From assembly GCA_016700095.1 (NCBI GenBank), contig CP065002.1, positions 1,060,145-1,124,144 on the forward strand: 64,000 bases of DNA, in the 5' to 3' direction. The notes beneath the pieces were generated by a model. That model had not been told where the DNA came from. It saw only the letters and a list, made by a program, of their open reading frames with translations, and did no database searches. The position numbers were made by a program, and so were the translations under genes. This document shows positions 3,518-62,279 of this stretch, piece after piece; positions within the stretch are counted from its first letter, which is position 1, and the number at the start of each line of letters is the position of its first letter. The DNA comes from Candidatus Woesebacteria bacterium. Lineage in GTDB: Bacteria; Patescibacteriota; Microgenomatia; UBA8517.

Positions 3518-4183
3518 ATGCAAAATTATAAAAACGAAATTCTATTCCTAATTTTTACAATTCCGGCAACTATCGTACTGCTTTTGTTTATTGCAACATA
3601 TTCTACTAAGCAACCAAGTGAAGTTAACAATGCAAACGCAAGTTCTTACTTAGCCACAATTACGGTAAATCCCAGTCCCACACCTCAACCGACCATAACG
3701 CCATCACCCAGTCCAATACCTACAATCGACTGGGGCGGTGAAAAAATCAGTGCATATATAACCTTTTATGGATGGCCCGACAACACCCCATCAGGGAATG
3801 CTATCGCGTATCCAAACAGCAGATATAGCCAAACGTTACATAATTGGGCAAGTGGCATAGGAACATTTAATGATCCACTGACAATTGCAACCGATCCCAG
3901 TTTTCTTGCTATTGGAACAAAAATTTATATTCCGCTTCTTCAAAAATACGGAATAGTTGAGGATCTTTGTGAAGGTTGTGTAAACAATGTACAAGAAAGC
4001 GGTAGAAATCATATCGATGTCTGGATGGAAAGTAATGATAACCATTCGCAAAGTTTAGTGGCATGTCAGCATTACTGGACAAGACAAATCTCTACTGTTG
4101 TTATACATCCATCCCACAATCTTCCGGTAAATTCCTTACCACTTTTTAACAAAGATACCGGTGAGTGCTTGAAGACTATTTAG
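3518..4183 (+). CDS. Secreted or membrane-anchored protein with a Pro/Thr-rich linker and a C-terminal 3D/DPBB-like (MltA/YuiC-like) domain
   Basis: N-terminal TM helix and a PSPTPQPTITPSPSPIPT linker. The C-terminal region has a conserved Asp pattern (GTKIYIPLL...IVEDLCEGC...HIDVWMES) resembling the 3D domain of cell-wall-binding proteins. Confidence 0.45.
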   Translation: MQNYKNEILFLIFTIPATIVLLLFIATYSTKQPSEVNNANASSYLATITVNPSPTPQPTITPSPSPIPTIDWGGEKISAYITFYGWPDNTPSGNAIAYPNSRYSQTLHNWASGIGTFNDPLTIATDPSFLAIGTKIYIPLLQKYGIVEDLCEGCVNNVQESGRNHIDVWMESNDNHSQSLVACQHYWTRQISTVVIHPSHNLPVNSLPLFNKDTGECLKTI

Positions 4184-4191
4184 AAGAAGGG

Positions 4192-6687
4192 TTAATTTGC
4201 GGCTAAATAAGTCGGCCTTTGTATGGCACTATTTCTCACCACTCCGTCAATCGGCCATTTAACAAGTGCAATTTTCAAAACATCATCAAGATTATCTGCA
4301 AACACAAACTTAATGTCTTTTTTAACTTTGTCGGGTACATCTTCCATATCTTTTTTGTTGTCCTTGGGTAAGATGATAGTTTTCAAACCTGCACGATGCC
4401 CTGCAATAACTTTTTCTTTGACACCGCCAATTTCCAAAACTCTACCTCTTAGAGTCACTTCTCCGGTCATCCCGACCCACCTTCTAACAGCAATACCGGT
4501 AAGCGCTGAGACCAAAGCTGTTGTCATCGCGATTCCGGCTGATGGTCCATCCTTGGGAACGGCTCCTTCGGGTACATGGATATGAACATCGATTTTTCTT
4601 CCGAAATTCTCTTTAAGTCCAAGTATGTTCCAATTTGCCTTTGCCCAGGTAAATGCGGCGGTTGCTGATTCTTTCATTACATCACCCAATTGCCCGGTTA
4701 GAGTAAGTTTTCCAATACCCGGCATCAATGACACTTCAATAAACAATATTTCGCCACCGGATGCGGTTACTGCAAGCCCCGTTGACATACCGATCTCATT
4801 GTTTTTTTCGGCAATCAGTGAGTTGTATTTTTGTGGACCTAAAAACTTACGTACATCAGTTGGTGTTATTTTGGTGGGATATTTTTTCTTTTCGGCAACC
4901 AAACGAGCTATCTTTCTGCAAATTGTGGCAACATTTCGTTCCAGATTCCTTACACCCGCTTCTCTGGTATAGCTTGAAATAATTTCATTTATTGATTTTG
5001 AATCAATCTTAATATTTCTATCGTCCAAACCATGTACTCTAAGTTGCTTGGGAATAAGGAAATCTTTTGCTATATCAAACTTTTCATCAATGGTATAACC
5101 GGGGAAATTTATAACTTCCATTCTGTCTCGAAGCGGTCCCGGGATCGTATCGAGAACGTTCCCTGTACAAATGAACATGACATCACTTAGATCATAAGGT
5201 ACTTCCAAATAGTGATCCGAAAATTCTCTGTTTTGTTCTGGATCAAGCGCTTCCAAAAGCGCACTGCTTGGATCACCTCTAAAGTCAACACCAAGTTTGT
5301 CAACCTCGTCGAGCATAAAAACAGGATTTTTTGTCCCCGCGTTTTTTATACCTTGTATAATTCTTCCGGGAAGAGCACCGACATACGTTCTTCTGTGTCC
5401 TCTAATTTCGGCCTCATCTCTCACACCTCCGAGGGATACTCTTACAAATTCACGTCCCATTGCGTGCGCAATCGATTTGCCTATCGAGGTTTTTCCAACA
5501 CCCGGAGGGCCTATAAAACATAATATTGTCGGCTGAAACTCCTTGGGTTTGTCCTTTTTGAAACCACCCTCCTTGGCCATCTTTCTTTTATCGCTTTGTT
5601 CTTTTACTTTCATAACAGCTAAGTATTCAATAATTCTTTCTTTTGCTTTCCTCAGTCCGTAATGTTCATTTTCTAAAACATTAACTGCGTTTTTTATCGA
5701 TACATTATTTGAAGAAAACGTATTCCAGGGCATATCCGTTAACCAATCCAAGTAATTTCTTATATACCCGGTTTCGGGATTGTGAGGCGATAATCTTTCT
5801 AATTTCTTTAGTTCCTTTTCCGTTCTGTCTTTGACGTCTTTGGGCATGTTCGCCTTTTTTATTTTCTTTTTATATAATTTTATTTCTTCCGAGCCTTCTT
5901 CAATTTCCTCACCCAGTTCTTCATCGATCGTTTTTCTTTTCTCTCTGAGCATCGCTTTCCTCATTTGATTTTCGAATCTCTTTTGCGTTTTAACGGAAAT
6001 TGATCTCTCCAAATCCAGCACATTTACTTCGTGTGCAAGAAATTCCAACACCTTTTCGAGTCGTTGTTTGAGAGATAGAGTCTCTAATATTTTTTGTTTA
6101 TCCGAAGTTTTTAATTCAAGTAAAAAAGCAACCTGGTCGACAAGTTCAATCGACGATACGGGTCCGGAGACAAGCTTCATTACCGTCATGATTTCTGCTT
6201 GTTTCCCCAGATTAATCGAGTGTTTGAACAATTCACGTAGTTTTTTCGTCAAGGCTTTAGTTTCGGCATTTTCTTCAATGTTGTCTTCGACTTCAATAAC
6301 CTTACCGACTAGATATGGTTCAGAGGAAATTACTTGATTTAATCTAACCCGTGCCTGACCACGTACGACCGCATGAATTTCACCTTCAGTTGTCATCATT
6401 TGGTTAATTGTCGCGATAGTGCCAATCGGGAAAAGATCATCCAAATCCGGGTCAACAGTTCTTGCGTCCTTTTGAGCAAAGATGGCAACCACCTTATCTT
6501 CCTGGAAAGCTGCATTGACAGCAGCTAAACTTTTTTTACGTCCGAAGGATAAAACGGGTTCGGTATGGGGAAAAACTACGGTGCCACGTACGGCAACCAG
6601 TGGTACATTACGTGCAATTAATATTTTTTTGTCATCCATAATTTTGTAATATCTTAGCAGTCTATCAGCGGGTCTGCCAAATGTCAA
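4192..6687 (-). CDS. lon: ATP-dependent Lon protease
   Basis: 831 aa. LON N-domain, AAA+ Walker A GPPGVGKTS, and a C-terminal protease domain with catalytic Ser motif PKDGPSAGIAM. Confidence 0.95.
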   Translation of the reverse strand: MTFGRPADRLLRYYKIMDDKKILIARNVPLVAVRGTVVFPHTEPVLSFGRKKSLAAVNAAFQEDKVVAIFAQKDARTVDPDLDDLFPIGTIATINQMMTTEGEIHAVVRGQARVRLNQVISSEPYLVGKVIEVEDNIEENAETKALTKKLRELFKHSINLGKQAEIMTVMKLVSGPVSSIELVDQVAFLLELKTSDKQKILETLSLKQRLEKVLEFLAHEVNVLDLERSISVKTQKRFENQMRKAMLREKRKTIDEELGEEIEEGSEEIKLYKKKIKKANMPKDVKDRTEKELKKLERLSPHNPETGYIRNYLDWLTDMPWNTFSSNNVSIKNAVNVLENEHYGLRKAKERIIEYLAVMKVKEQSDKRKMAKEGGFKKDKPKEFQPTILCFIGPPGVGKTSIGKSIAHAMGREFVRVSLGGVRDEAEIRGHRRTYVGALPGRIIQGIKNAGTKNPVFMLDEVDKLGVDFRGDPSSALLEALDPEQNREFSDHYLEVPYDLSDVMFICTGNVLDTIPGPLRDRMEVINFPGYTIDEKFDIAKDFLIPKQLRVHGLDDRNIKIDSKSINEIISSYTREAGVRNLERNVATICRKIARLVAEKKKYPTKITPTDVRKFLGPQKYNSLIAEKNNEIGMSTGLAVTASGGEILFIEVSLMPGIGKLTLTGQLGDVMKESATAAFTWAKANWNILGLKENFGRKIDVHIHVPEGAVPKDGPSAGIAMTTALVSALTGIAVRRWVGMTGEVTLRGRVLEIGGVKEKVIAGHRAGLKTIILPKDNKKDMEDVPDKVKKDIKFVFADNLDDVLKIALVKWPIDGVVRNSAIQRPTYLAAN

Positions 6688-49939: not shown

Positions 49940-50700
49940 ATCTTCTCACCCTACAGGTGATATAGCTTTACACATCTCCCTATTAATATTATATTTTAGT
50001 AATGCCCAATAAAAGATCAGTTGTATTTGCAACTAACGAAATCTATCACACGTATAACCGGTCGGTTGCCAACGAAGAAATATTTAATAATTCCAGAAAT
50101 ATAAACCGGGCCTTAGACCTTATCAATTATTACAAAAATCTTTCTAATTTGAGATTCTCGTATTTTGTAAAATTGAGTCAAGACAAGAAAAATGAACACC
50201 TCAAGTCTAAAAAAATCATTCCTCTTGTGGAAGTTTATGCCTTTTCCATAATGCCCAATCATTTTCATTTACTGGTAAGACAACTTTCCGAAAATGGGAT
50301 AGAAAAATTCTTATCAAATTTTCAAAACAGCTTTGCAAAATATTATAATATTAGAAACAAAAGATATGGAGCCTTGTTTCAGCGACCGTTTAAAGCGAAA
50401 CATGTCGCGGGTGACAAGGAATTACTACATCTGTCTAGATATATACATCTTAATCCCGTAACCTCTTTCATGTTGGATCTCGAGGAATTGAAAACAAGCA
50501 ACCTAACATCCTTTCCCCATTATTTGAAACCTGTAAATAACTTAGTGAATAGCGATTTAATTATAAAGCTTGCTGGTTCCAAAACAAAATATCTGCAATT
50601 TGTTTCAAATCAAGTAGATTATCAAAGGAAGTTGGGCAAGATCAATCATTTAATAATTAAAAAGTAAGTTGTGTAGCCTTATTTCACCCGTAGGGTGTAA
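49940..50700 (+). mobile_element. IS200/IS605-like unit: Y1 HUH transposase (RAYT-like) flanked by short hairpins
   Basis: The CDS at 50002..50667 carries the HUH motif IMPNHFHLLV and the catalytic Tyr region LSRYIHLNPV. Hairpins tcacc-ctaca-ggtga sit upstream and caccc-gta-gggtg downstream. Confidence 0.75.
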
Positions 50701-53987: not shown

Positions 53988-54044
53988 AGCAAACTAATTA
54001 ACTCTATTAAACTACCTGCCAAATAATATTTCCCGTACAACTTT

Positions 54045-54300
54045 CCCCTTTCTTTCTGGATTCCCTTTTTCAAGGGAATGACAACGTCTCTGTCACTCTC
54101 TGTTGTTTTCTGTCATCCTCTTCTGTTTTCTGTCATCCTCTGTTGTTTTCTGTCATCCTCAAAAAGCGTTTTGTCATTCCTGGCTTATGTTTTGTCATCC
54201 TCGCGAAGGCATATTGTCATCCCGCACTCGATGCGGGATCCAGTCCCCTTTCTTTCTGGATTCCCTTTTTCAAGGGAATGACAACGTCTCTGTCATCCCC
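54045..54300. repeat. Repeat cluster: two 60-bp direct copies (54045 and 54245), six spaced TTGTCATYC units and 8-bp-stem hairpins
   Basis: cccctttctttctggattccctttttcaagggaatgacaacgtctctgtca occurs twice. ttttctgtcatcctc occurs three times. The hairpins are atcccgca-ctcga-tgcgggat and atccccga-ctccga-tcggggat. Confidence 0.85.
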
Positions 54301-54601
54301 GACTCCGATCGGGGATCCAGTCCCCAGATAAATCTTTCCACTCTGGATTAACACTCTCAATCAATTCCAGTTTCCATGTCCTATTCCATTTCTTCAATTG
54401 TTTTTCTCGTACAAGAGCAGCCTCTATATCATTAGTAACTTCAAAATATACCAGCATACTAACATTGTGTTTTTGGGTAAAACCTTTAATTAAATGATGT
54501 TTATGTTCATACATCCTTCGTTCTAAATTATTCGTGACTCCTATGTAGAGTGTCCCGTTTCTTTTACTTGCAAGAATGTAGACATAATAAGTTTTGGCCA
54601 T
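54293..54601 (-). CDS. GIY-YIG nuclease (small URI-domain endonuclease)
   Basis: YYVYILASKRNGTLYIGVTNNLERRMYEHK. The C-terminal tail DWIPDRSRG is encoded by one of the hairpin repeats. Confidence 0.85.
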   Translation of the reverse strand: MAKTYYVYILASKRNGTLYIGVTNNLERRMYEHKHHLIKGFTQKHNVSMLVYFEVTNDIEAALVREKQLKKWNRTWKLELIESVNPEWKDLSGDWIPDRSRG

Positions 54602-54609
54602 ACAAATAG

Positions 54610-54965
54610 TATTAATGTCTAGATTCCCTTTTTCAAGGGAATGACAAAGAGACTACGCAAACAACCAAAGGATACAGGAATGACAAAGGTGAAAAGGAAT
54701 GACAATGTTGTTTTCTGTCATCCTCAAAAAGCGTTTTGTCATTCCTGGCTTATGTTTTATCATCCTCACGAAGGCATATTGTCATCCCGCACTCGATGCG
54801 GGATCCAGTGTTCTCCTGTCATCCCCCGCGAAAGCGTATTGTCATCCCGCACTCGATGCGGGATCCAGTCCCCTTTCTTTCTGGATTCCCTTTTTTCCTC
54901 CTTCGCTGATAGCTTCGGAAGGACACAGCAAGGGAATGACAAAAAGGCTGTAGAAATGACAACGA
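54610..54965. repeat. Second half of the repeat cluster. It includes a 104-bp direct copy (54704-54807) of 54123-54226 and more gaatgacaa/tgtcatcc units and hairpins
   Basis: Direct comparison of the two segments shows two mismatches. The ggattccctttttcaagggaatgacaa palindrome also recurs. Confidence 0.85.
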
Positions 54966-55833: not shown

Positions 55834-56589
55834 ATGAATCGACCTCGTTCCCTACTTGAACGTAAGTTCAAGACGCGCGCCATCCGGCGACAATTCGGTA
55901 ACGAGGTCTTTGTAACTTTATTATACACAACTGGTATCATAAGAATAATGGCATACGTTTTTATCGACGAAAGTGGAGATTTGGGATTTAATTTCCAGAA
56001 AAAGGGAACTTCAAGCTATTTTGTGATAACTCTTTTATTTAGCTCTACCAAACGTTCTGTTGAAAAAGTAGTCAAAAAAACATTCAGAAGTTTACCCGCT
56101 AAGGTACAGCAAAAACATACAGGCTGTCTACATGCTGTGAACGAAAAACCAAAAACTCGCATTAAACTGCTGAGTCTTCTCAACAAACAAGACATCTCAA
56201 TAGTCACGATATATCTTAATAAGAAAAAGGTCTATACCAGATTACAAGATGAGAAACACGTTCTCTATAATTACGTAACAAATATTTTACTAGATAGAGT
56301 CTATTCAAAGAAGCTGATTCCAACCAAAGGCCAAATACAATTAATCGCTTCTCAGAGAGAAACAAATAAGTTTCTTAATGCAAATTTTAAACAGTACTTA
56401 GAAAATCAGGCTAAAAATAATCACAAGCTAAATATTACTATTGAAATAAGACCATCCCACTCAGAAAAGGGTTTGCAAGCTGTCGATTTTGCATGTTGGG
56501 CAATTTACCGAAAAATTGAAAGGGGTGATTCTAGCTACATCAATATAATTAATAGCAGAATAATAGAAGAAAGCCCGTTGTTTCCTTAA
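55834..56589 (+). CDS. DUF3800-family protein; the likely true start is the internal Met at about 55948
   Basis: MAYVFIDESGDLGF is the DUF3800 N-terminal signature. Confidence 0.65.
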   Translation: MNRPRSLLERKFKTRAIRRQFGNEVFVTLLYTTGIIRIMAYVFIDESGDLGFNFQKKGTSSYFVITLLFSSTKRSVEKVVKKTFRSLPAKVQQKHTGCLHAVNEKPKTRIKLLSLLNKQDISIVTIYLNKKKVYTRLQDEKHVLYNYVTNILLDRVYSKKLIPTKGQIQLIASQRETNKFLNANFKQYLENQAKNNHKLNITIEIRPSHSEKGLQAVDFACWAIYRKIERGDSSYINIINSRIIEESPLFP

Positions 56590-56739
56590 AAAACAAAACC
56601 CTATGCGCTATTTACGAGCAACCATCCGGAAGCCCACGCATAAGGATTTACTTGTTAAATAAATTATACTTTACTTTGTCAAGAAATAACAATTCCCCCT
56701 CCCCTGCCAGATTGGTGAAAAAGTGGTAAAATAGCATCA

Positions 56740-57108
56740 ATGAATAAGCAATTATCAGACATCCAGAAACTGACTGCGAAAATTATTAAATTTCGAGATG
56801 CTAGAGATTGGAAACAATTTCATAACCCCAAAGACGTTTCGCTCTCTTTGGTGCTAGAGGCCACAGAAGTTATGGAACATTTCCAATGGAAGAGCAACGA
56901 AGAAATAGTTGAGTATGTCAAAACTCACAAAGAAGAAATTTCAGAGGAATTGGCCGATGTAATGTACTGGATACTTTTGTTGAGCCATGATCAAAACATA
57001 AACATATTTAGTGCCTTAAAAAAGAAAATTAGAAAAAATGAGCTAAAGTATCCCGTAAAAAAAGCTAAGGGAAATGCAAAAAAATATACTGAGTTAGAAA
57101 AATTATGA
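56740..57108 (+). CDS. MazG-like nucleoside triphosphate pyrophosphohydrolase
   Basis: EATEVMEHFQW and EELADVMYWILLL all-alpha NTP-PPase motifs. 122 aa. Confidence 0.75.
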   Translation: MNKQLSDIQKLTAKIIKFRDARDWKQFHNPKDVSLSLVLEATEVMEHFQWKSNEEIVEYVKTHKEEISEELADVMYWILLLSHDQNINIFSALKKKIRKNELKYPVKKAKGNAKKYTELEKL

Positions 57109-59027
57109 TCGTTTACTCTTCCACAAAAAGAAACTTCAATCTAGATGTTACGACAAATCAAATCGAAAAGTCTATATTGTCATCTTTTGTAAGAGAATTA
57201 GGGCATTCAACGGGTAAATCAGAAGTCGCATCATGGAGAAACTCCATGCTATATATGAACAATATTGTTTCGGATCCTGAAATTCCTGATGATACAGGAG
57301 TAGCAATTGAGTATAAAATTCCACGGACGACAAAAAGAATTGACTTCATATTAACTGGTGCAAATTCCGAACATAAAAAAACCGCCATACTCATCGAACT
57401 AAAACAGTGGAGCGATGGTGTTGCGATATCCGACAAAGATGGAATTGTAAGTACGAAGTTTTTCGGAGAAGTTAATCATCCCTCTTATCAAATATGGTCT
57501 TATGCAATGCTTTTGAAGGATTACAATTCCAATGTACAGGAACAAGACATTGCACTAAAACCATGTGCTTATCTACACAACTATGATCGTGACAATAATG
57601 ACGGTGACACTGTCATTGAAAATGAATTTTATAACGAATATCTTACTAAAGCACCTGTTTTCTTAAGGGAAGACATGCTGAAACTTCAAACATTTATCAA
57701 AAAATATGTGAAATATGGAGATAATGGAGATGTTATATATGCAATCGAAAACGGGAAGATACGTCCATCAAAAGCGCTTGCCGACAGTTTATCTTCAATG
57801 CTTGAGGGTAACAAGGAGTTTATTTTAATTGACGATCAAAAACTAGTATACGAAACCGCATTGAAGCTTGCCAGAGAATCAAATGAAAGCAACAAGAATG
57901 TTTTGATAGTGGAAGGTGGACCGGGAACTGGCAAGTCAGTAGTTGCGATTAACTTACTCACTGAATTAACCAATCGTGGACAAGTAACACAGTACGTAAC
58001 CAGAAATTCTGCACCTCGTGAAGTCTATCAGATTAAACTAACTGGGAAATTTACAAAATCTAGGATATCGAATTTATTTAGTTCATCTGGATCTTTTTAC
58101 AACATTGAACAAAATACATTTGATTCTCTGATCATAGATGAAGCTCACAGACTTAATGAAAAGTCTGGATTATTTAACCATCTTGGTGAAAATCAAATCA
58201 AAGAACTAATTAGTGCTGCAAAATTTAGTGTCTTTTTCATAGACGAGGACCAAAGAGTAACTTTAAAAGACGTCGGTAATATTTCAGATATCGAAACTAC
58301 CGCTGAACTACTCGGGGCAAAAGTACATAATCTTAAGTTAGCTTCTCAATTTCGCTGTAACGGATCAGATGGATATCTTGCATGGGTCGATAATACGCTA
58401 CAAATTCGAGAAACGGCAAACGAAACACTAGAAGATATTGATTATGATTTTAGAGTATTAGACAATCCGAATGCTGTTCATCAATTAATTATTGAAAATA
58501 ATAATGATAATAAATCCCGAGTGCTTGCAGGATACTGCTGGAATTGGGTAAGTAAAAATTCCCCAGAGTTGAAGGACATAATCATTGGTGATTACAAAGC
58601 CACTTGGAACCTTAATAAACACGGTCAAGCCTGGATTATTCATCCTGATTCCGTCAATGAGGTAGGGTGTATTCACACATCTCAAGGCCTTGAACTTGAC
58701 TATGTTGGGGTTATCATTGGCCCAGATCTAGTAATTCGCGATAACGAAGTTATAACTGATGCAAGTAAACGGGCAAGAACTGATAAATCCATCTTTGGAT
58801 ATAAAAAGATGTTGAATCAAAATCCTGTAAAAGCCCGAGAAATCACTGACATGATAATTAAAAACACTTATCGAACTCTGATGACAAGAGGCATGAAGGG
58901 TTGCTATGTTTATTGCACAGACACAGAAACACAAGAGTATTTTCGCAATAAACTTAGATCAAAAAAAACAGCTGGTACTGATTACGGAAGTATTCCATCA
59001 GGTGTTTCCGTTAACACTGATAAGTAG
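57105..59027 (+). CDS. DUF2075-type protein: an N-terminal PD-(D/E)xK-like nuclease domain fused to an SF1-like P-loop ATPase/helicase core
   Basis: N-terminal RIDFILTG...ILIELKQW has a D...ExK pattern. Walker A VEGGPGTGKSVVA. Walker B/DEAH-like LIIDEAHRL. The start overlaps the MazG-like stop by 4 nt. Confidence 0.7.
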   Translation: MIVYSSTKRNFNLDVTTNQIEKSILSSFVRELGHSTGKSEVASWRNSMLYMNNIVSDPEIPDDTGVAIEYKIPRTTKRIDFILTGANSEHKKTAILIELKQWSDGVAISDKDGIVSTKFFGEVNHPSYQIWSYAMLLKDYNSNVQEQDIALKPCAYLHNYDRDNNDGDTVIENEFYNEYLTKAPVFLREDMLKLQTFIKKYVKYGDNGDVIYAIENGKIRPSKALADSLSSMLEGNKEFILIDDQKLVYETALKLARESNESNKNVLIVEGGPGTGKSVVAINLLTELTNRGQVTQYVTRNSAPREVYQIKLTGKFTKSRISNLFSSSGSFYNIEQNTFDSLIIDEAHRLNEKSGLFNHLGENQIKELISAAKFSVFFIDEDQRVTLKDVGNISDIETTAELLGAKVHNLKLASQFRCNGSDGYLAWVDNTLQIRETANETLEDIDYDFRVLDNPNAVHQLIIENNNDNKSRVLAGYCWNWVSKNSPELKDIIIGDYKATWNLNKHGQAWIIHPDSVNEVGCIHTSQGLELDYVGVIIGPDLVIRDNEVITDASKRARTDKSIFGYKKMLNQNPVKAREITDMIIKNTYRTLMTRGMKGCYVYCTDTETQEYFRNKLRSKKTAGTDYGSIPSGVSVNTDK

Positions 59028-59030
59028 TTA

Positions 59031-59723
59031 ATGACCAAAAAAACTATTCAAAAGCATATTGGAGAAGGCCACCGAAAAAGACTGAGGGATAAATTTTTAA
59101 ACGCTGGTCTTGACGGATTTTTGGATTATGAAGTTGTTGAATTACTACTAACTCTTGGCACCCCTAGAAAAGATTGTAAACAACCCGCAAAAGAAGCAGT
59201 AAAAAAATTCAAAGGACTACTGGGTGTATTGGATTCATCACTGGAGGAATTGCAACAAATAAAAGGTATTGGACCTTCAAACGCATTTGGAATCAAGCTA
59301 TTTCAAGCAGTGTCTAAACGATACACTAAAGAAAAACTTACACCCACAACACTTCTTAATTCACCGCAATCAATATTTGAATATTTAAGAGAGCGAATAG
59401 GGAAAGAAAAAAAAGAACACTTTTCAATTATGTGTCTCGACACTCGCAGTAATTTAATCATCGAAGACGTATCAGTTGGAATTCTCAATGCCAGCCTTGT
59501 CCATCCTCGTGAGGTTTTCAAAAAAGCAATTCTCAATAATTCATCTTATGTTGTACTTGCACACAATCACCCGTCTGGTGATCCAACTCCGTCCAGTGAT
59601 GATATTATAACTACGAGAAGACTTGTTGAATCCGGCAAGATTCTTGGCATTACAGTTGTCGATCATCTAATTATTACTAAAAATGAATTTGTCAGCTTGA
59701 AAGAGAAAGGCTTCATTCAATAG
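59031..59723 (+). CDS. radC: RadC-like JAB/MPN domain protein
   Basis: N-terminal HhH LQQIKGIGPSNAFGIKL. JAMM motif HNHPSGDPTPSSDD. Only 4 nt after the DUF2075 gene. Confidence 0.85.
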   Translation: MTKKTIQKHIGEGHRKRLRDKFLNAGLDGFLDYEVVELLLTLGTPRKDCKQPAKEAVKKFKGLLGVLDSSLEELQQIKGIGPSNAFGIKLFQAVSKRYTKEKLTPTTLLNSPQSIFEYLRERIGKEKKEHFSIMCLDTRSNLIIEDVSVGILNASLVHPREVFKKAILNNSSYVVLAHNHPSGDPTPSSDDIITTRRLVESGKILGITVVDHLIITKNEFVSLKEKGFIQ

Positions 59724-59912
59724 GAGCTAATCTACATAACCATCCAGTAATTCGCTCGAACCTCCAGAATGTCTAATAAAACAAAATCTTCTCTTTTCTT
59801 GGGCAACAACTATGTTACAACATCATTCACAACACATTGAAGCACAGCACTACGGCTTCGTCGTAGTGGCTATCTTTAATTGATGAAAATATTCCTATAA
59901 ATATCTGACGAC

Positions 59913-61298
59913 ATGAGAAGTAATAAAATTTTGTATAATAGCGTCATGGAAGCACAGGAATTTAATAAAACAATAAAAAGTATTAGTAATTCTTCAATAA
60001 AGGAGCTTTATCTCCTTATGGATAAAAATAAATTAACTTCAGATAAGAAAATCTACGACTATTTTGTTAATACAAGTTTTGAAAAAGTTTTAGAAATCAC
60101 AACTGAAGCATATATCATAACAACCACAACTAACAATTATATAAATCCATCATTATTTAACTTCTCAGCATCCATTTCCTTAAGCGGTGGAGATAAATCC
60201 TGTGGTGCATGGGAATGTAGAATAAATAAAGTACAGGAAATAGCAGCTTTTTCTTCACTTTATGCCGATACTCTGACTCTTCATAATCCTTTTGACTTTG
60301 TGTATTTCTATATAAATCCTGTAAACAACTTTCGCATTGCTGAAAGAAAATTTAGAAACGAGTCTATAGTTGCTTTTTCAATAGCATTAAACTTCAAATA
60401 CCTAATTGAAAGAAAGCTAATGTTGTTTTCTAAAACAACAAATTTAATGTGTAGTGAATGTGTCACCAAAAAAGATCAATATTTATTGTCAATAGAAAAT
60501 AAATTAAAAGATATTGCAAAGAACAAACTCTATCCAATTATTAATAATTTTGACATTAAATACGGAGATAATTTCTATAATTTAGAGGGGATCAAAGATA
60601 TTCTTGGAGAGGAAATATTTAATCATTTCGAAGTTTTTCCTAAATATCTCATAAAAGATGGAATAAAAGTTAACAACACTAGACAATTAAAATATGATAA
60701 TTATTTAATACAAAATTTAATCGGAAATGCGATAAATAGTTTGTTGTTTCAAAAATTTGGGAACATTAATGCAGTCAGTCAAACTTATCTGACAACAAAT
60801 TTGTTTGAATCAAGATTATTAGAAAATCTAGGAAGTACATCGGAAAACAACACTCTGAATCTTTTAGCACATGGATTACCTGTATTACAGAGTAAATCAC
60901 TTGAAGATATAATAAAAATTAGAGAAAAACATAAAGATGAATTCATCTCATTTAGAGAACATCTTTATGATATTTTAGAAAAAGCTAGTTTCTTTAAAAC
61001 ACAAGTTGAATATAACGCTTTTGTAAACAATAAATTATACTCTGAATTGAAAGATCTTATACAAATTCAGAATGAAGCAAAAAAGAAATTTATAAGAAAA
61101 GGATTCATTACAGGAGTTTTTTTGAGTGCTATTGCTATCCCAACAGCAATAGATCCATCTACCAAAGATATTATATCAACACTCTTAACTATATATAATT
61201 GTAAGGAATTTTATAATAGCGTTACTGAAAAAGAAAAACAAATTACTGAATTGCCTATATATTTCTATTTTAGACTTACAGAATCTTTGTCTGAATAA
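59913..61298 (+). CDS. Hypothetical protein (461 aa)
   Basis: ORF only. Asn/Lys-rich. Confidence 0.45.
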   Translation: MRSNKILYNSVMEAQEFNKTIKSISNSSIKELYLLMDKNKLTSDKKIYDYFVNTSFEKVLEITTEAYIITTTTNNYINPSLFNFSASISLSGGDKSCGAWECRINKVQEIAAFSSLYADTLTLHNPFDFVYFYINPVNNFRIAERKFRNESIVAFSIALNFKYLIERKLMLFSKTTNLMCSECVTKKDQYLLSIENKLKDIAKNKLYPIINNFDIKYGDNFYNLEGIKDILGEEIFNHFEVFPKYLIKDGIKVNNTRQLKYDNYLIQNLIGNAINSLLFQKFGNINAVSQTYLTTNLFESRLLENLGSTSENNTLNLLAHGLPVLQSKSLEDIIKIREKHKDEFISFREHLYDILEKASFFKTQVEYNAFVNNKLYSELKDLIQIQNEAKKKFIRKGFITGVFLSAIAIPTAIDPSTKDIISTLLTIYNCKEFYNSVTEKEKQITELPIYFYFRLTESLSE

Positions 61299-61556
61299 AG
61301 TATATTTACTAAAATGTGAACGTTAATGACCGCAGCCTCAAGAAAAGACCATACTTTACCCCTTAGTCACCACATTTTCGTCATTCGCGCTTACTCTTGG
61401 GAATCCTTGTTATAATTCACTAAACTGAACCGAGGGTAATAATCTACATATTACTCAACAACTCTAATTAATTACTTACCAAAGCACAAGAGGCGTAGGA
61501 ACAATATCGTCAATTTGACCCTATAGTGCGTATTTTGTGCTCATCTATAGTATAAT

Positions 61557-62279
61557 TTGCATATTATGACAATTGAGATAAACGGTAAAGAATATAACAC
61601 TTATCAAGCCAGAAGGGGTCAAAAATACATTGATTCATTATTCCTTGAGTCACGAACAAAAAATAAACCCCTTGATAACGCGATAAGACAAGTATTGCAA
61701 CAACAAGTAGAGTCAATACATGGACCGATTGAGTTTTATGCGCACGACTCAGCTGATGTCAGTGAACCTCGAATTGTCACACTAAAAAATGTGAATAGAT
61801 CAACGGGTGGATTTAGATCATTTTTTGCAGACGGTGCGAGAGTACTTGATATCGGTAGCGGAGCAGGTTTAGCAGTAAGTGAGTTTTCTATGGCTTTTCC
61901 TAAAACAGACTTCATCGGGGTGGATAATGGTTACACATCAGAGTTAGTTCCAGCCTATCCTGATTATGGTAAGTTTGTTTGTGCTGATTGGAACAACTTA
62001 CCGTTTGCACCAAATACTTTTACCGGTTTTTTGTCAGCAGAATCATTTCCCAAACATGCTGTTCCGATAGAAAAGCATGCGGCGACTTTTCAGCAAATAA
62101 CAAGAATTGCTCAACCTGGGGCCGTTTGGAGAGGAACAAATCAAGATAATTTGCAAATATCGTTTGGCCATAAAAATACAAATTATCGTAGAGAGTTTCT
62201 AGATAATATGCATCAAAACGGATGGGATGTATTTTTGACAAATCATATATTTATCGCAAAGCTTACAGGTAAACAATAA
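61557..62279 (+). CDS. Class I SAM-dependent methyltransferase (substrate unknown)
   Basis: Motif I VLDIGSGAGLAV. Motif II/III region FIGVDNG...FVCADWNNLPF. Confidence 0.7.
   Translation: MHIMTIEINGKEYNTYQARRGQKYIDSLFLESRTKNKPLDNAIRQVLQQQVESIHGPIEFYAHDSADVSEPRIVTLKNVNRSTGGFRSFFADGARVLDIGSGAGLAVSEFSMAFPKTDFIGVDNGYTSELVPAYPDYGKFVCADWNNLPFAPNTFTGFLSAESFPKHAVPIEKHAATFQQITRIAQPGAVWRGTNQDNLQISFGHKNTNYRREFLDNMHQNGWDVFLTNHIFIAKLTGKQ

Follow-up and report, generated by a model that had tools for sequence, protein, structure and literature searches.

Nhi (S. epidermidis SERP2475) and Nhi-like proteins such as SG141 from B. cereus join an N-terminal PD-(D/E)xK nuclease to a DUF2075 SF1 helicase, act as single genes, and defend against phages (Bari et al.; Millman et al. 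2022). A helicase of the same family, now called SLFN-g3_helicase, is found in the group 3 Schlafen proteins (SLFN11, SLFN5 and SLFN13), which also couple a nuclease domain to the helicase and which, like Nhi-type proteins, have antiviral roles. Schlafen group 3 proteins are, however, eukaryotic, use a Schlafen core RNase in place of the PD-(D/E)xK domain, and have neither a pyrophosphatase nor RadC as a partner. Closer still is a gene pair listed as the candidate ‘Pyrophosphatase’ in Table S2 of Millman et al. 2022 (bioRxiv 10.1101/2022.05.11.491447), with two representatives, SG192 and SG193. SG192, from Bacillus firmus, was marked ‘x’ (no defence observed), the cloning of SG193 failed, and the candidate was neither named as a system nor discussed in the text of that paper. 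We analysed a 64,000-nucleotide stretch of a Candidatus Woesebacteria genome (hereafter the window) which holds a pair homologous to SG192 and in the same order, a small MazG-type pyrophosphatase gene followed by a gene for a DUF2075 protein (~640 aa in SG192); identity to SG192 is 46% for the pyrophosphatase and 54% for the DUF2075 protein over the 400 aa shown. SG192 and SG193 comprise two genes only, without RadC, and come from Bacillus rather than CPR. New here are the RadC version of the pair, sister variants with a fused S24 domain, and a C-terminal tail that is nearly limited to the RadC-linked clade. The unit in the window is a three-gene cassette at 56740-59723 encoding a MazG-like protein, a nuclease-helicase and RadC, and we lean modestly towards its being a CPR-clade module for defence against phages or other mobile DNA.

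The preliminary description of this DNA had proposed a six-gene operon and candidate defence locus, made up of genes for a DUF3800 protein, the three cassette proteins, a 461-aa protein and a methyltransferase. All six ORFs were recovered at the same coordinates on the plus strand, and Pfam bore out the domain assignments, the 461-aa protein having no significant family. A row of six same-strand genes has little meaning here, because the window has far longer same-strand runs. The short or overlapping junctions attributed to the whole set are a property of the middle three genes only. The MazG-like gene (56740..57108, +) overlaps the nuclease-helicase gene (57105..59027, +) by 4 nt, as had been described, and radC (59031..59723, +) follows after 3 intervening bases (TAG tta ATG) rather than 4. 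The other gaps are larger, with 150 nt between the DUF3800 and MazG-like genes, 189 nt between radC and the gene for the 461-aa protein, and a further 258 nt before the methyltransferase gene. A terminator-like hairpin after radC (59848..59868, +; 9-bp stem with 5 GC pairs) is a possible, weak candidate for the 3′ end of the cassette transcript; promoter and terminator scans gave site counts not above shuffled expectation. Upstream lies the GIY-YIG and repeat cluster that had been noted, a minus-strand GIY-YIG gene (54293-54601) flanked by direct repeats.

The central protein of the cassette is a Nhi-like nuclease-helicase. Its N-terminal domain (approximately residues 1-215) has a restriction-endonuclease fold of the PD-(D/E)xK type, with D80, E98 and K100 invariant. 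The helicase domain (264-606) matches PF09848 with 359 bits, retains an invariant Walker A lysine (GPGTGK277S) and Walker B pair (D345/E346), and is SF1B-like, resembling SLFN11; Foldseek matches were RecD2, SLFN11, Dna2, Upf1 and Dda, and the last three are also the reported structural neighbours of Nhi. We found that the D..ExK, Walker A and Walker B motifs of Nhi-like SG141 lie colinear and in register with those of the window protein, at a low identity of 22% over 355 residues (pairwise E 7e-6). PADLOC-DB v2.0.0 recognised no known system and gave no full-length component matches to any one system. Its matches to the DUF2075 protein were partial or weak: PDC-S41 (55.6 bits over the N-terminal half), AbiO, and Nhi at 48.7 bits, which covers only residues 237-419, the P-loop region. 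Generic JAB models were matched only at E>0.002, and neither the 461-aa nor the DUF3800 protein had a match. The earlier statement that this is not a named system holds true, with the qualification that its core pair has been listed before and tested once, as SG192.

The first gene of the cassette encodes an all-alpha NTP pyrophosphatase of the DCTPP1/RS21-C6 type, as indicated by Pfam and PDB matches, conserved residues and linkage. Both the family score (PF12643, 60.6 bits against a cut-off of 27) and the metal-binding motif place it among the MazG-like/DCTPP1 enzymes; the ExxE...ExxD ligands E40, E43, E46, E70 and D73 are kept in 46-48 of 48 cassette homologues. Its PDB sequence matches include 4qgp (1.4e-20) and mouse and human dCTP pyrophosphatase 1 (1.1e-17). 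Removal of a dNTP pool is reportedly an established defence strategy, and the cassette resembles the dCTP deaminase and dGTPase defences in encoding an enzyme of a dCTP pyrophosphatase family with intact metal ligands. It differs from them in fold and chemistry, as an all-alpha NTP-PPase yielding dNMP and PPi, and in its pairing with a nuclease-helicase.

To our knowledge, RadC has no known function in any context, although it is near-universal, and its ‘DNA repair’ name has been shown to be misleading. The RadC of the cassette is full length, with a UPF0758/HhH N-terminal domain (UPF0758_N, 35.8 bits) and a JAB/JAMM domain (PF04002, 142 bits), and it exceeds the equivalog cut-off of NCBIfam NF000642 (210 bits against 180). 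As in canonical RadC (YicR/YsxA), the metal site is intact: in the JAMM motif E...HxH(x7)SxxD, H178, H180, S188 and D191 are kept in 16/16 homologues and E161 in 15/16. RadC is also tied to a DNA helicase in the RadC-like DinG proteins (PMC11981726), where it is an N-terminal fusion to an SF2 helicase, whereas in the cassette it is encoded on its own, after the gene for an SF1 helicase.

We compared the window with 72 related loci, all non-redundant and drawn from bacteria, archaea and plasmids; their sources include Patescibacteria, Gammaproteobacteria, Bacteroidota, Firmicutes, Methanobrevibacter, and haloarchaeal and other plasmids. Neighbourhood tabulation revealed that MazG-like and RadC-like genes do co-occur with DUF2075 homologues. 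The MazG-like gene lies directly upstream in 49 of 64 evaluable loci, namely 46 of 61 non-redundant ones (at <=60 nt) plus all three closest relatives, and in a further 3 of the 61 it lies within 1.5 kb. Thus, unlike Nhi and Nhi-like proteins, the window family does not generally stand alone. The 15 of 64 loci without an adjacent MazG-like gene count against the reading as a defence cassette. RadC linkage is narrower. Within the clade of at least 64% identity, which is mostly CPR, the gene directly after DUF2075 is radC in 19 of the 20 evaluable loci (16/17, then 3/3 for the closest relatives, with RadC/DUF2075 identities of 86/84, 81/82 and 77/78%); outside this clade, it is next to DUF2075 in 0 of 33 evaluable loci. 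Protein identities also covary, with a Spearman coefficient of 0.75 (p 9e-10) for DUF2075 and MazG and of 0.65 (p 0.006) for DUF2075 and RadC. Starting from RadC gave a similar picture: among the 119 closest RadC homologues for which a contig size is on record, 39 lie on a contig exactly as long as that of a top DUF2075 match, and two further RadC homologues that we checked both sit within the cassette. The scenario in which RadC is a core gene and only the MazG/DUF2075 pair is variable is not what we observed, because RadC moves with the pair and its identity tracks that of DUF2075.

Two features of the nuclease-helicase's C-terminus distinguish the clades. A disordered tail at approximately 620-640, with the motif Y..D....G.S.N.D, is almost confined to the RadC-linked clade; one locus, L004, has a tail-like motif but no adjoining RadC, and carries a RadC-PIF1 helicase gene pair. 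In six sister loci, a LexA-like Peptidase_S24 domain is fused to the C-terminus instead, and it occupies the position that the tail and RadC take in the RadC clade. These parallels between RadC and the tail and between RadC and S24 are co-occurrences at the level of clades and are phylogenetically non-independent. The addition of RadC or S24 in some clades is a further difference from Nhi and Nhi-like proteins.

The outer genes of the proposed operon behave differently. DUF3800 proteins have an RNase H-like fold per the literature, and an association of DUF3800 genes with DUF3800 RNA motifs, on either side and in either orientation, has been described (Weinberg et al. 2017, PMC5737381). The window fits that description. 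A full-length DUF3800-IX RNA (Rfam RF02968; 55837..55908, −; model positions 1-67/67, 56.9 bits where the gathering score is 36.8, E 2.4e-10) lies 40 nt from the DUF3800 gene, on the opposite strand. The ORF listed for this gene starts at 55834, and its first 38 codons overlap the RNA; the most likely start is M39, which opens the sequence MAYVFIDESGD and would place the gene at 55948..56589 (+). The Pfam domain (PF12686, 59.9 bits against 21) begins at residue 41, and the sequence shows DE (FIDESGD) and QxxD (QAVD) motifs. Other loci whose cassette has DUF3800 neighbours are L043, L045, L092 and L049, the last on both sides; in L049 and L092 the RNA motif, too, adjoins DUF3800 and MazG. We found no description of this repeated placement directly beside the cassette in the literature that we searched. 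These neighbours occur in a minority of loci, on either side, and are only 27-45% identical to one another. DUF3800 and its RNA are therefore a separate protein-plus-ncRNA module that recurs next to the cassette without being obligatory there, rather than an operon member.

The two downstream genes are bystanders. The 461-aa orphan (450 aa at NCBI; 59913..61298, +; gene GC 0.27, which is low) has only 6 homologues, at 40-44% identity, among 5.8 billion proteins searched; their neighbourhoods differ, and one adjoins a type IIG R-M gene. The class I SAM-dependent methyltransferase (61557..62279, +) has generic Methyltransf_25 (31.6 bits) and Methyltransf_11 matches, with BioC-like matches weak and below cut-off, and neither a (D/N/S)PP(Y/F) motif nor a DNA-methyltransferase signature was present in its sequence or profile matches. 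Both genes adjoin the cassette in the window genome only and are absent from all other cassette loci (70+), including the three closest relatives (78-84% identity). It is thus highly improbable that all six genes make up one multi-gene defence operon: they are contiguous and on one strand, and DUF3800 does recur near the cassette in several loci, but gaps of 150-258 nt separate the outer genes from it, the last two are never seen with it elsewhere, and DUF3800 has an ncRNA partner of its own and only loose, two-sided association with the cassette. We separately considered a restriction-modification system and rejected it, as no DNA methyltransferase is linked to the nuclease gene and the methyltransferase is never linked to the cassette elsewhere.

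Within its narrower limits of three genes, the earlier proposal of a defence locus stands in so far as the gene set is conserved, horizontally mobile and associated with defence islands. The flanks of the cassette differ in every locus and often hold defence genes; neighbours include the Mrr type IV REase, Mrr_cat-nSTAND3, Fic/SoFic, Cas9, DRT reverse transcriptases, McrB-like AAA_5, R-M genes and TA pairs. In two loci (L040 and L041), the cassette is inserted between fusA and tuf together with Bro-N, TIR and RHH genes. MazG-like plus Nhi-like is a widespread, horizontally transferred two-gene module, of which the window cassette is the CPR-clade form. This distribution bears on a reading without any immune role, in which a mobile module for DNA maintenance and nucleotide house-cleaning would sanitise non-canonical dNTPs and process damaged or stalled DNA with the help of RadC. 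DCTPP1-type proteins are house-cleaning enzymes, and the classical view of both the MazG-like and the RadC family as ‘house-cleaning’ or housekeeping counts against defence. The equivalog-level RadC score, the lack of phage defence by SG192, the S24-fused variants, suggestive of a connection with RecA and the DNA-damage response, and the high sequence conservation among CPR lineages point the same way. Patchy occurrence over bacteria and archaea with unrelated flanks, presence on plasmids and insertion in the str operon, enrichment of defence genes among the neighbours, and the proven defence activity of Nhi and Nhi-like proteins of the same architecture argue against it, and we regard it as unlikely.

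Alternatively, the cassette might work for its carrier mobile elements rather than for the host, either as an addiction or toxin-antitoxin-like pair whose pyrophosphatase restrains a toxic nuclease-helicase, or in replication, exclusion or counter-defence. Plasmids do carry homologues, as does a record submitted under the name Microcystis phage Mwe-JY31, Bro-N genes are close by in three loci, MazG-like and RadC proteins have phage relatives, and the failed cloning of SG193 may hint at toxicity. We consider this quite improbable, however, given that 2.9 million IMG/VR viral contigs yielded no relative, that the DUF2075 protein has no match to a specific PHROG family, and that most loci lie on chromosomes and lack integrase or replication genes adjoining the cassette.

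Under the defence reading that we prefer, the helicase would load on DNA that is foreign or being replicated, for the nuclease domain to cut, by analogy with what has been shown for Nhi. The MazG-like pyrophosphatase, probably translationally coupled to the Nhi-like enzyme, would hydrolyse dCTP or modified dCTP-type precursors, serving either as a regulator or as a second effector by which phage replication is starved. RadC, combining HhH DNA binding with a JAB metallo-hydrolase, may be an accessory particular to this clade that works on or together with the nuclease-helicase, possibly via the C-terminal tail; it sits where sister clades carry the fused LexA-like S24 peptidase domain. The linkage of the genes, the domain folds, the intact catalytic motifs, the mobility and the defence-island context are results of this comparison, and from them we infer the defensive role, the substrates and any regulatory step that involves RadC and the tail or S24. 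Bolder, and distinctly doubtful, is a version in which RadC is a dedicated regulator, a metallo-hydrolase that docks on or processes the conserved tail as the equivalent of the self-cleaving S24 domain, and forms with the Nhi-like enzyme and the pyrophosphatase a DNA-damage- or replication-sensing immune system of three enzymes spreading among CPR, with the recurrent DUF3800 and DUF3800-IX RNA module cooperating as an RNA-guided or RNA-sensing component.

The enigmatic DUF3800 RNA motifs gain a defined genomic neighbourhood from this locus. If the cassette is defensive, it would extend Nhi/Schlafen-type nuclease-helicase immunity to a version coupled to a DCTPP1-like pyrophosphatase, linking DNA degradation to nucleotide-pool control. 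RadC would gain a concrete, testable partner in an SF1 helicase-nuclease, a parallel both to the RadC-DinG fusions and to the LexA-like S24 domain at the equivalent position. Ultra-small CPR genomes would, moreover, be shown to retain and exchange cassettes of this kind, with insertion even into the fusA-tuf ribosomal gene cluster.

In the Candidatus Woesebacteria (CPR/Patescibacteria) genome that contains the window, the DUF2075 gene lies in a run of six ORFs (window 55834-62279), all on the + strand, whose products are in order a DUF3800 protein, a MazG-like protein, the DUF2075 protein, RadC, a 461-aa protein and a SAM methyltransferase; Pfam and NCBIfam upheld each of the named families and gave no significant family for the 461-aa protein. 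In the Pfam scan of the window protein the DUF2075 domain, since renamed SLFN-g3_helicase, scored 359 bits, while RadC reached 210 bits against an NCBIfam equivalog cut-off of 180, and the methyltransferase is of a generic class I SAM type. The preliminary description had the six genes joined by short or overlapping junctions, which is true of the middle three only: MazG-like (56740-57108) and DUF2075 (57105-59027) overlap by 4 nt and a spacer of 3 bases precedes RadC (59031-59723), but the remaining junctions measure 150, 189 and 258 nt. We found that the 461-aa gene and the methyltransferase are absent from every related locus, including the three closest relatives (78–84% identity), and the unit therefore shrinks to three genes, a cassette of MazG-like, DUF2075 and RadC. 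That all six co-oriented genes form a single system, as had been proposed, is essentially excluded; what stands of that proposal is a conserved, mobile cassette. Among related loci, the two-gene core of MazG-like and DUF2075 is far more widespread than the three-gene form. PADLOC, run on the six proteins and four neighbours, called no system and returned partial matches only, and scans revealed no promoters or terminators above chance.

The 461-aa ORF (window 59913-61298; 27% GC) is a near-orphan, with six homologues of 40–44% identity among 5.8 billion proteins and a weak, sub-threshold match to DUF6236. Neighbourhoods of these homologues are unrelated, one adjoining a type IIG restriction-modification (R-M) gene; together with the related loci, they show no tie between this protein and methyltransferases or the cassette elsewhere.

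Linkage was assessed in DUF2075 relatives from 30 loci (one genome per species) and 42 metagenome loci, along with plasmids, phages and contigs bearing the closest database homologues. Near-identical loci were collapsed first, and neighbours were then tabulated by tblastn with the window proteins. Of 64 evaluable loci, 49 carry a co-oriented MazG-like gene no more than 60 nt upstream of DUF2075, and three others have one within 1.5 kb; in the close clade (at least 64% DUF2075 identity to the window) the tight spacing is seen in 23/24 loci. The loci come from Patescibacteria, Gammaproteobacteria, Bacteroidota, Firmicutes, Bifidobacteriaceae, Methanobrevibacter, Methanosphaera and one haloarchaeal plasmid, on which RefSeq's own ‘nucleotide pyrophosphohydrolase’ is located 5 nt upstream of the DUF2075 relative. 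RadC is directly 3′ of DUF2075 in 19 of 20 evaluable close-clade loci, versus 0/33 in the distant clade comprising the remaining relatives. Identities of paired RadC and DUF2075 proteins move together (86/84, 81/82, 77/78, 77/77 and 72/75%), and identity tracks DUF2075 identity for both partners (Spearman 0.75 for MazG, 0.65 for RadC). The best 120 RadC homologues listed, out of 5.8 billion proteins, are all at least 69% identical, and of the 119 among them whose contig size is recorded, 39 are on a contig exactly equal in size to one with a top DUF2075 match; two matches on long contigs outside those 39 were inspected, and both lie directly 3′ of MazG-DUF2075. Clustering of 124 flanking ORFs in search of a recurrent third or fourth gene produced no large cluster other than TPR proteins from one Bacteroidota subclade, additional DUF2075 paralogues, and pairs common to near-identical loci.

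DUF3800 neighbours were called by Pfam scan, as the local profile search was too insensitive. Such genes stand at most two genes away from the cassette in the window and in comparison loci (designated L, with locus-internal coordinates) L049/L072 (one each side), L043 (downstream of RadC), and L045 and L092 (upstream). An Rfam scan identified a full-length DUF3800-IX RNA (RF02968) on the minus strand at window 55837-55908, scoring 56.9 bits (gathering score 36.8). It underlies codons 1–38 of the DUF3800 ORF as listed, a stretch that is probably the opposite strand of this RNA; given also that the Pfam domain begins at residue 41 and that M39 opens the typical MAYVFIDESGD, the start is most likely at 55948. 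The RNA falls between DUF3800 and MazG in L049 (2974-3044, minus strand) and L092 (3342-3413, minus strand), and on DUF3800's other side in the window, such that a DUF3800 and RNA module is directly upstream of MazG-DUF2075-RadC in three independent loci. DUF3800 proteins are mutually 27–45% identical, versus 68–73% for cassette proteins of the same loci, and DUF3800 is absent from the three closest cassette relatives. DUF3800 is no fixed component of the cassette, yet it is a non-random neighbour, and the pattern fits an independent DUF3800 and ncRNA module as described by Weinberg et al. (PMC5737381). In the literature, an RNase H-like fold has been modelled for DUF3800, and the domain is present in type VII retrons and in one branch of Cas12a2. 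L092 has DUF2075 split into two ORFs of 258 and 289 aa (4073-5992) and retains MazG, RadC, DUF3800 and the RNA motif; its cassette may be a decaying copy.

The cassette's flanks differ in every locus examined. In L040/L041, the cassette and genes for Bro-N, TIR-domain and RHH proteins are wedged between fusA and tuf of an otherwise canonical rpsL-rpsG-fusA-tuf-rpsJ (str/S10) ribosomal cluster; this accessory insert of ~9 kb in a Patescibacteria genome (L040 5187-14027; L041 is the same contig) also holds an RNase H/exonuclease-like gene. Elsewhere the neighbours are Mrr_N and RE_endonuc genes in one case, Mrr_cat-nSTAND3 in another, a DUF433/DUF5615 pair beside rpoB in a third, and Fic and PemK/SocA genes in a fourth, and on a Hymenobacter plasmid an R-M system and a second DUF2075 gene adjoin the cassette. 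A scan of 112 flanking ORFs detected Fic/SoFic/PDC-S04 (4), DUF3800 (4), AAA_5 (3), Cas9 (2) and DRT-type reverse transcriptases (2), as well as type II methyltransferases, PD-(D/E)xK and PIF1 proteins. No DUF2075 relatives were found in the IMG/VR viral scan, and the DUF2075 protein matched no specific PHROG family. Among GenBank phages there was a single close match, in a ‘Microcystis phage’ record that is 22 kb in length and holds only hypothetical proteins; we did not accept it as evidence of a phage gene. Within the window, an IS200/Y1-transposase-like gene (50002-50667; Y1_Tnp, 31.6 bits by Pfam) is situated ~6 kb upstream, among small accessory genes (DUF1653, SDR, SHOCT). A small GIY-YIG gene on the minus strand (54293-54601) lies in a repeat region (54044-54949), bracketed by direct repeats of 100–200 nt (54141-54295 versus 54706-54920) with up to 98% identity; the region also has 20-nt sub-repeats, and some repeat copies are similar to the gene's own 3′ end.

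The MazG-like protein of the window is homologous to DCTPP1/RS21-C6 (PDB 6sqw/2a3q at 1.1e-17, 4qgp at 1.4e-20), and its ExxE...ExxD metal ligands E40, E43, E46, E70 and D73 are kept in 46–48 of 48 cassette homologues. The RadC JAMM motif (H178, H180, S188, D191) is intact in 16/16. A PDB sequence search with the DUF2075 protein gave no match and a fold search was used instead; the full-length AF2 model was moderate (pLDDT 68), leading to low Foldseek TM-scores, so fold class alone was relied on. A conserved, predicted-disordered C-terminal tail (window 58962-59027, DUF2075 residues ~620-640, e.g. TDYGSIPSGVSVNTDK) has a consensus of about Y..D....G.S.N.D in RadC-linked DUF2075 proteins and is absent from the distant clade except for one partial match (L009). 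Its association with RadC is a clade-level co-occurrence only; L004 keeps a tail-like motif without an adjacent RadC. Upstream of L004's MazG-DUF2075 pair, which has no RadC of its own, a RadC gene (38% identity to that of the window) overlaps one for a PIF1-like SF1B helicase; the overlapping genes (4429-6469) are 1.2 kb away, with RadC 3 kb upstream. A PIF1-like gene 76% identical to that of L004 is upstream of a complete cassette in L003 (6026-7351). RadC-like domains are known to occur fused to DinG helicases (PMC11981726).

Six distant-clade loci encode a DUF2075 protein ~160 aa longer, with a C-terminal Peptidase_S24 (LexA/UmuD-like) domain bearing a GxSM serine motif and an AAG/ACG site upstream of it (L007 8001-10382; L013 4328-6709; L014 8412-10382; L029 8001-10424; L057 73-2478; L073 6001-8409). 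This places a protease-type module in the sister clade at the position held by the separate RadC gene in the CPR clade. In another variant, a TPR protein of 520–670 aa abuts the MazG start or overlaps it by 4 nt, and is translationally coupled (L013 2328-3998; L014 6101-7675; L015 5687-7678; L035 3629-5647); it occurs in the Bacteroidota subclade and in the GenBank record filed under the name Microcystis phage Mwe-JY31. Tandem divergent DUF2075 paralogues were also observed (L032 6001-9987; L055 2223-5959; L058 3699-7860), the second replacing an absent MazG-like gene in L032 and L055, and L058 retaining MazG directly upstream.

The nuclease and DUF2075 architecture of the window protein is exactly that of two single-gene anti-phage proteins, Nhi, described by Bari et al., and Nhi-like, described by Millman et al. 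(2022, bioRxiv 10.1101/2022.05.11.491447). The validated Nhi-like SG141 is 22% identical and colinear with the window protein, and the D..ExK, Walker A and Walker B motifs of the two line up; the PADLOC models Nhi, AbiO and PDC-S41 match it only in part. Table S2 of Millman et al. lists a candidate system named ‘Pyrophosphatase’, comprising SG192 from Bacillus firmus LK28 (pyrophosphatase of 98 aa and DUF2075 of 643 aa; observed defense ‘x’) and SG193 from B. thuringiensis (‘Cloning failed’). SG192 proteins are 54% (DUF2075) and 46% (pyrophosphatase) identical to the window's. The two-gene core had thus already been noticed and tested once without effect, and is neither named nor discussed there. 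Our literature search for DUF2075, Nhi or Nhi-like with MazG or pyrophosphatase, and for DCTPP1 with phage defence, found no paper in the library searched that links both genes, that supplementary table being the sole record of the pair. The cassette joins an Nhi-like nuclease-helicase to a previously flagged, unvalidated pyrophosphatase partner.

We lean slightly towards the cassette being a defence module. Because the one test so far was negative and the MazG and RadC families have a housekeeping character, two alternatives stay in play: a mobile DNA-maintenance module, which we consider unlikely, and an element-selfish or TA-like role, which seems quite improbable. For a defence module, the most likely mechanism is like that of Nhi: the SF1 domain would use ATP-driven translocation or unwinding to bring the PD-(D/E)xK nuclease to DNA that is foreign or being replicated. 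Its DCTPP1-like partner enzyme could serve as second effector or regulator by hydrolysing dCTP or modified dCTP-type precursors, and RadC, or the fused S24 domain, may provide proteolytic or hydrolytic control. New here is the three-gene form with RadC, which prevails in the close clade; most records of that clade carry CPR labels, and a few are annotated as Gammaproteobacteria, Omnitrophica or Nanoarchaeota MAGs. Also new are the S24-fused DUF2075 variants, the RadC-linked tail and the TPR-coupled variant. The link to RadC is the cassette's most interesting aspect.
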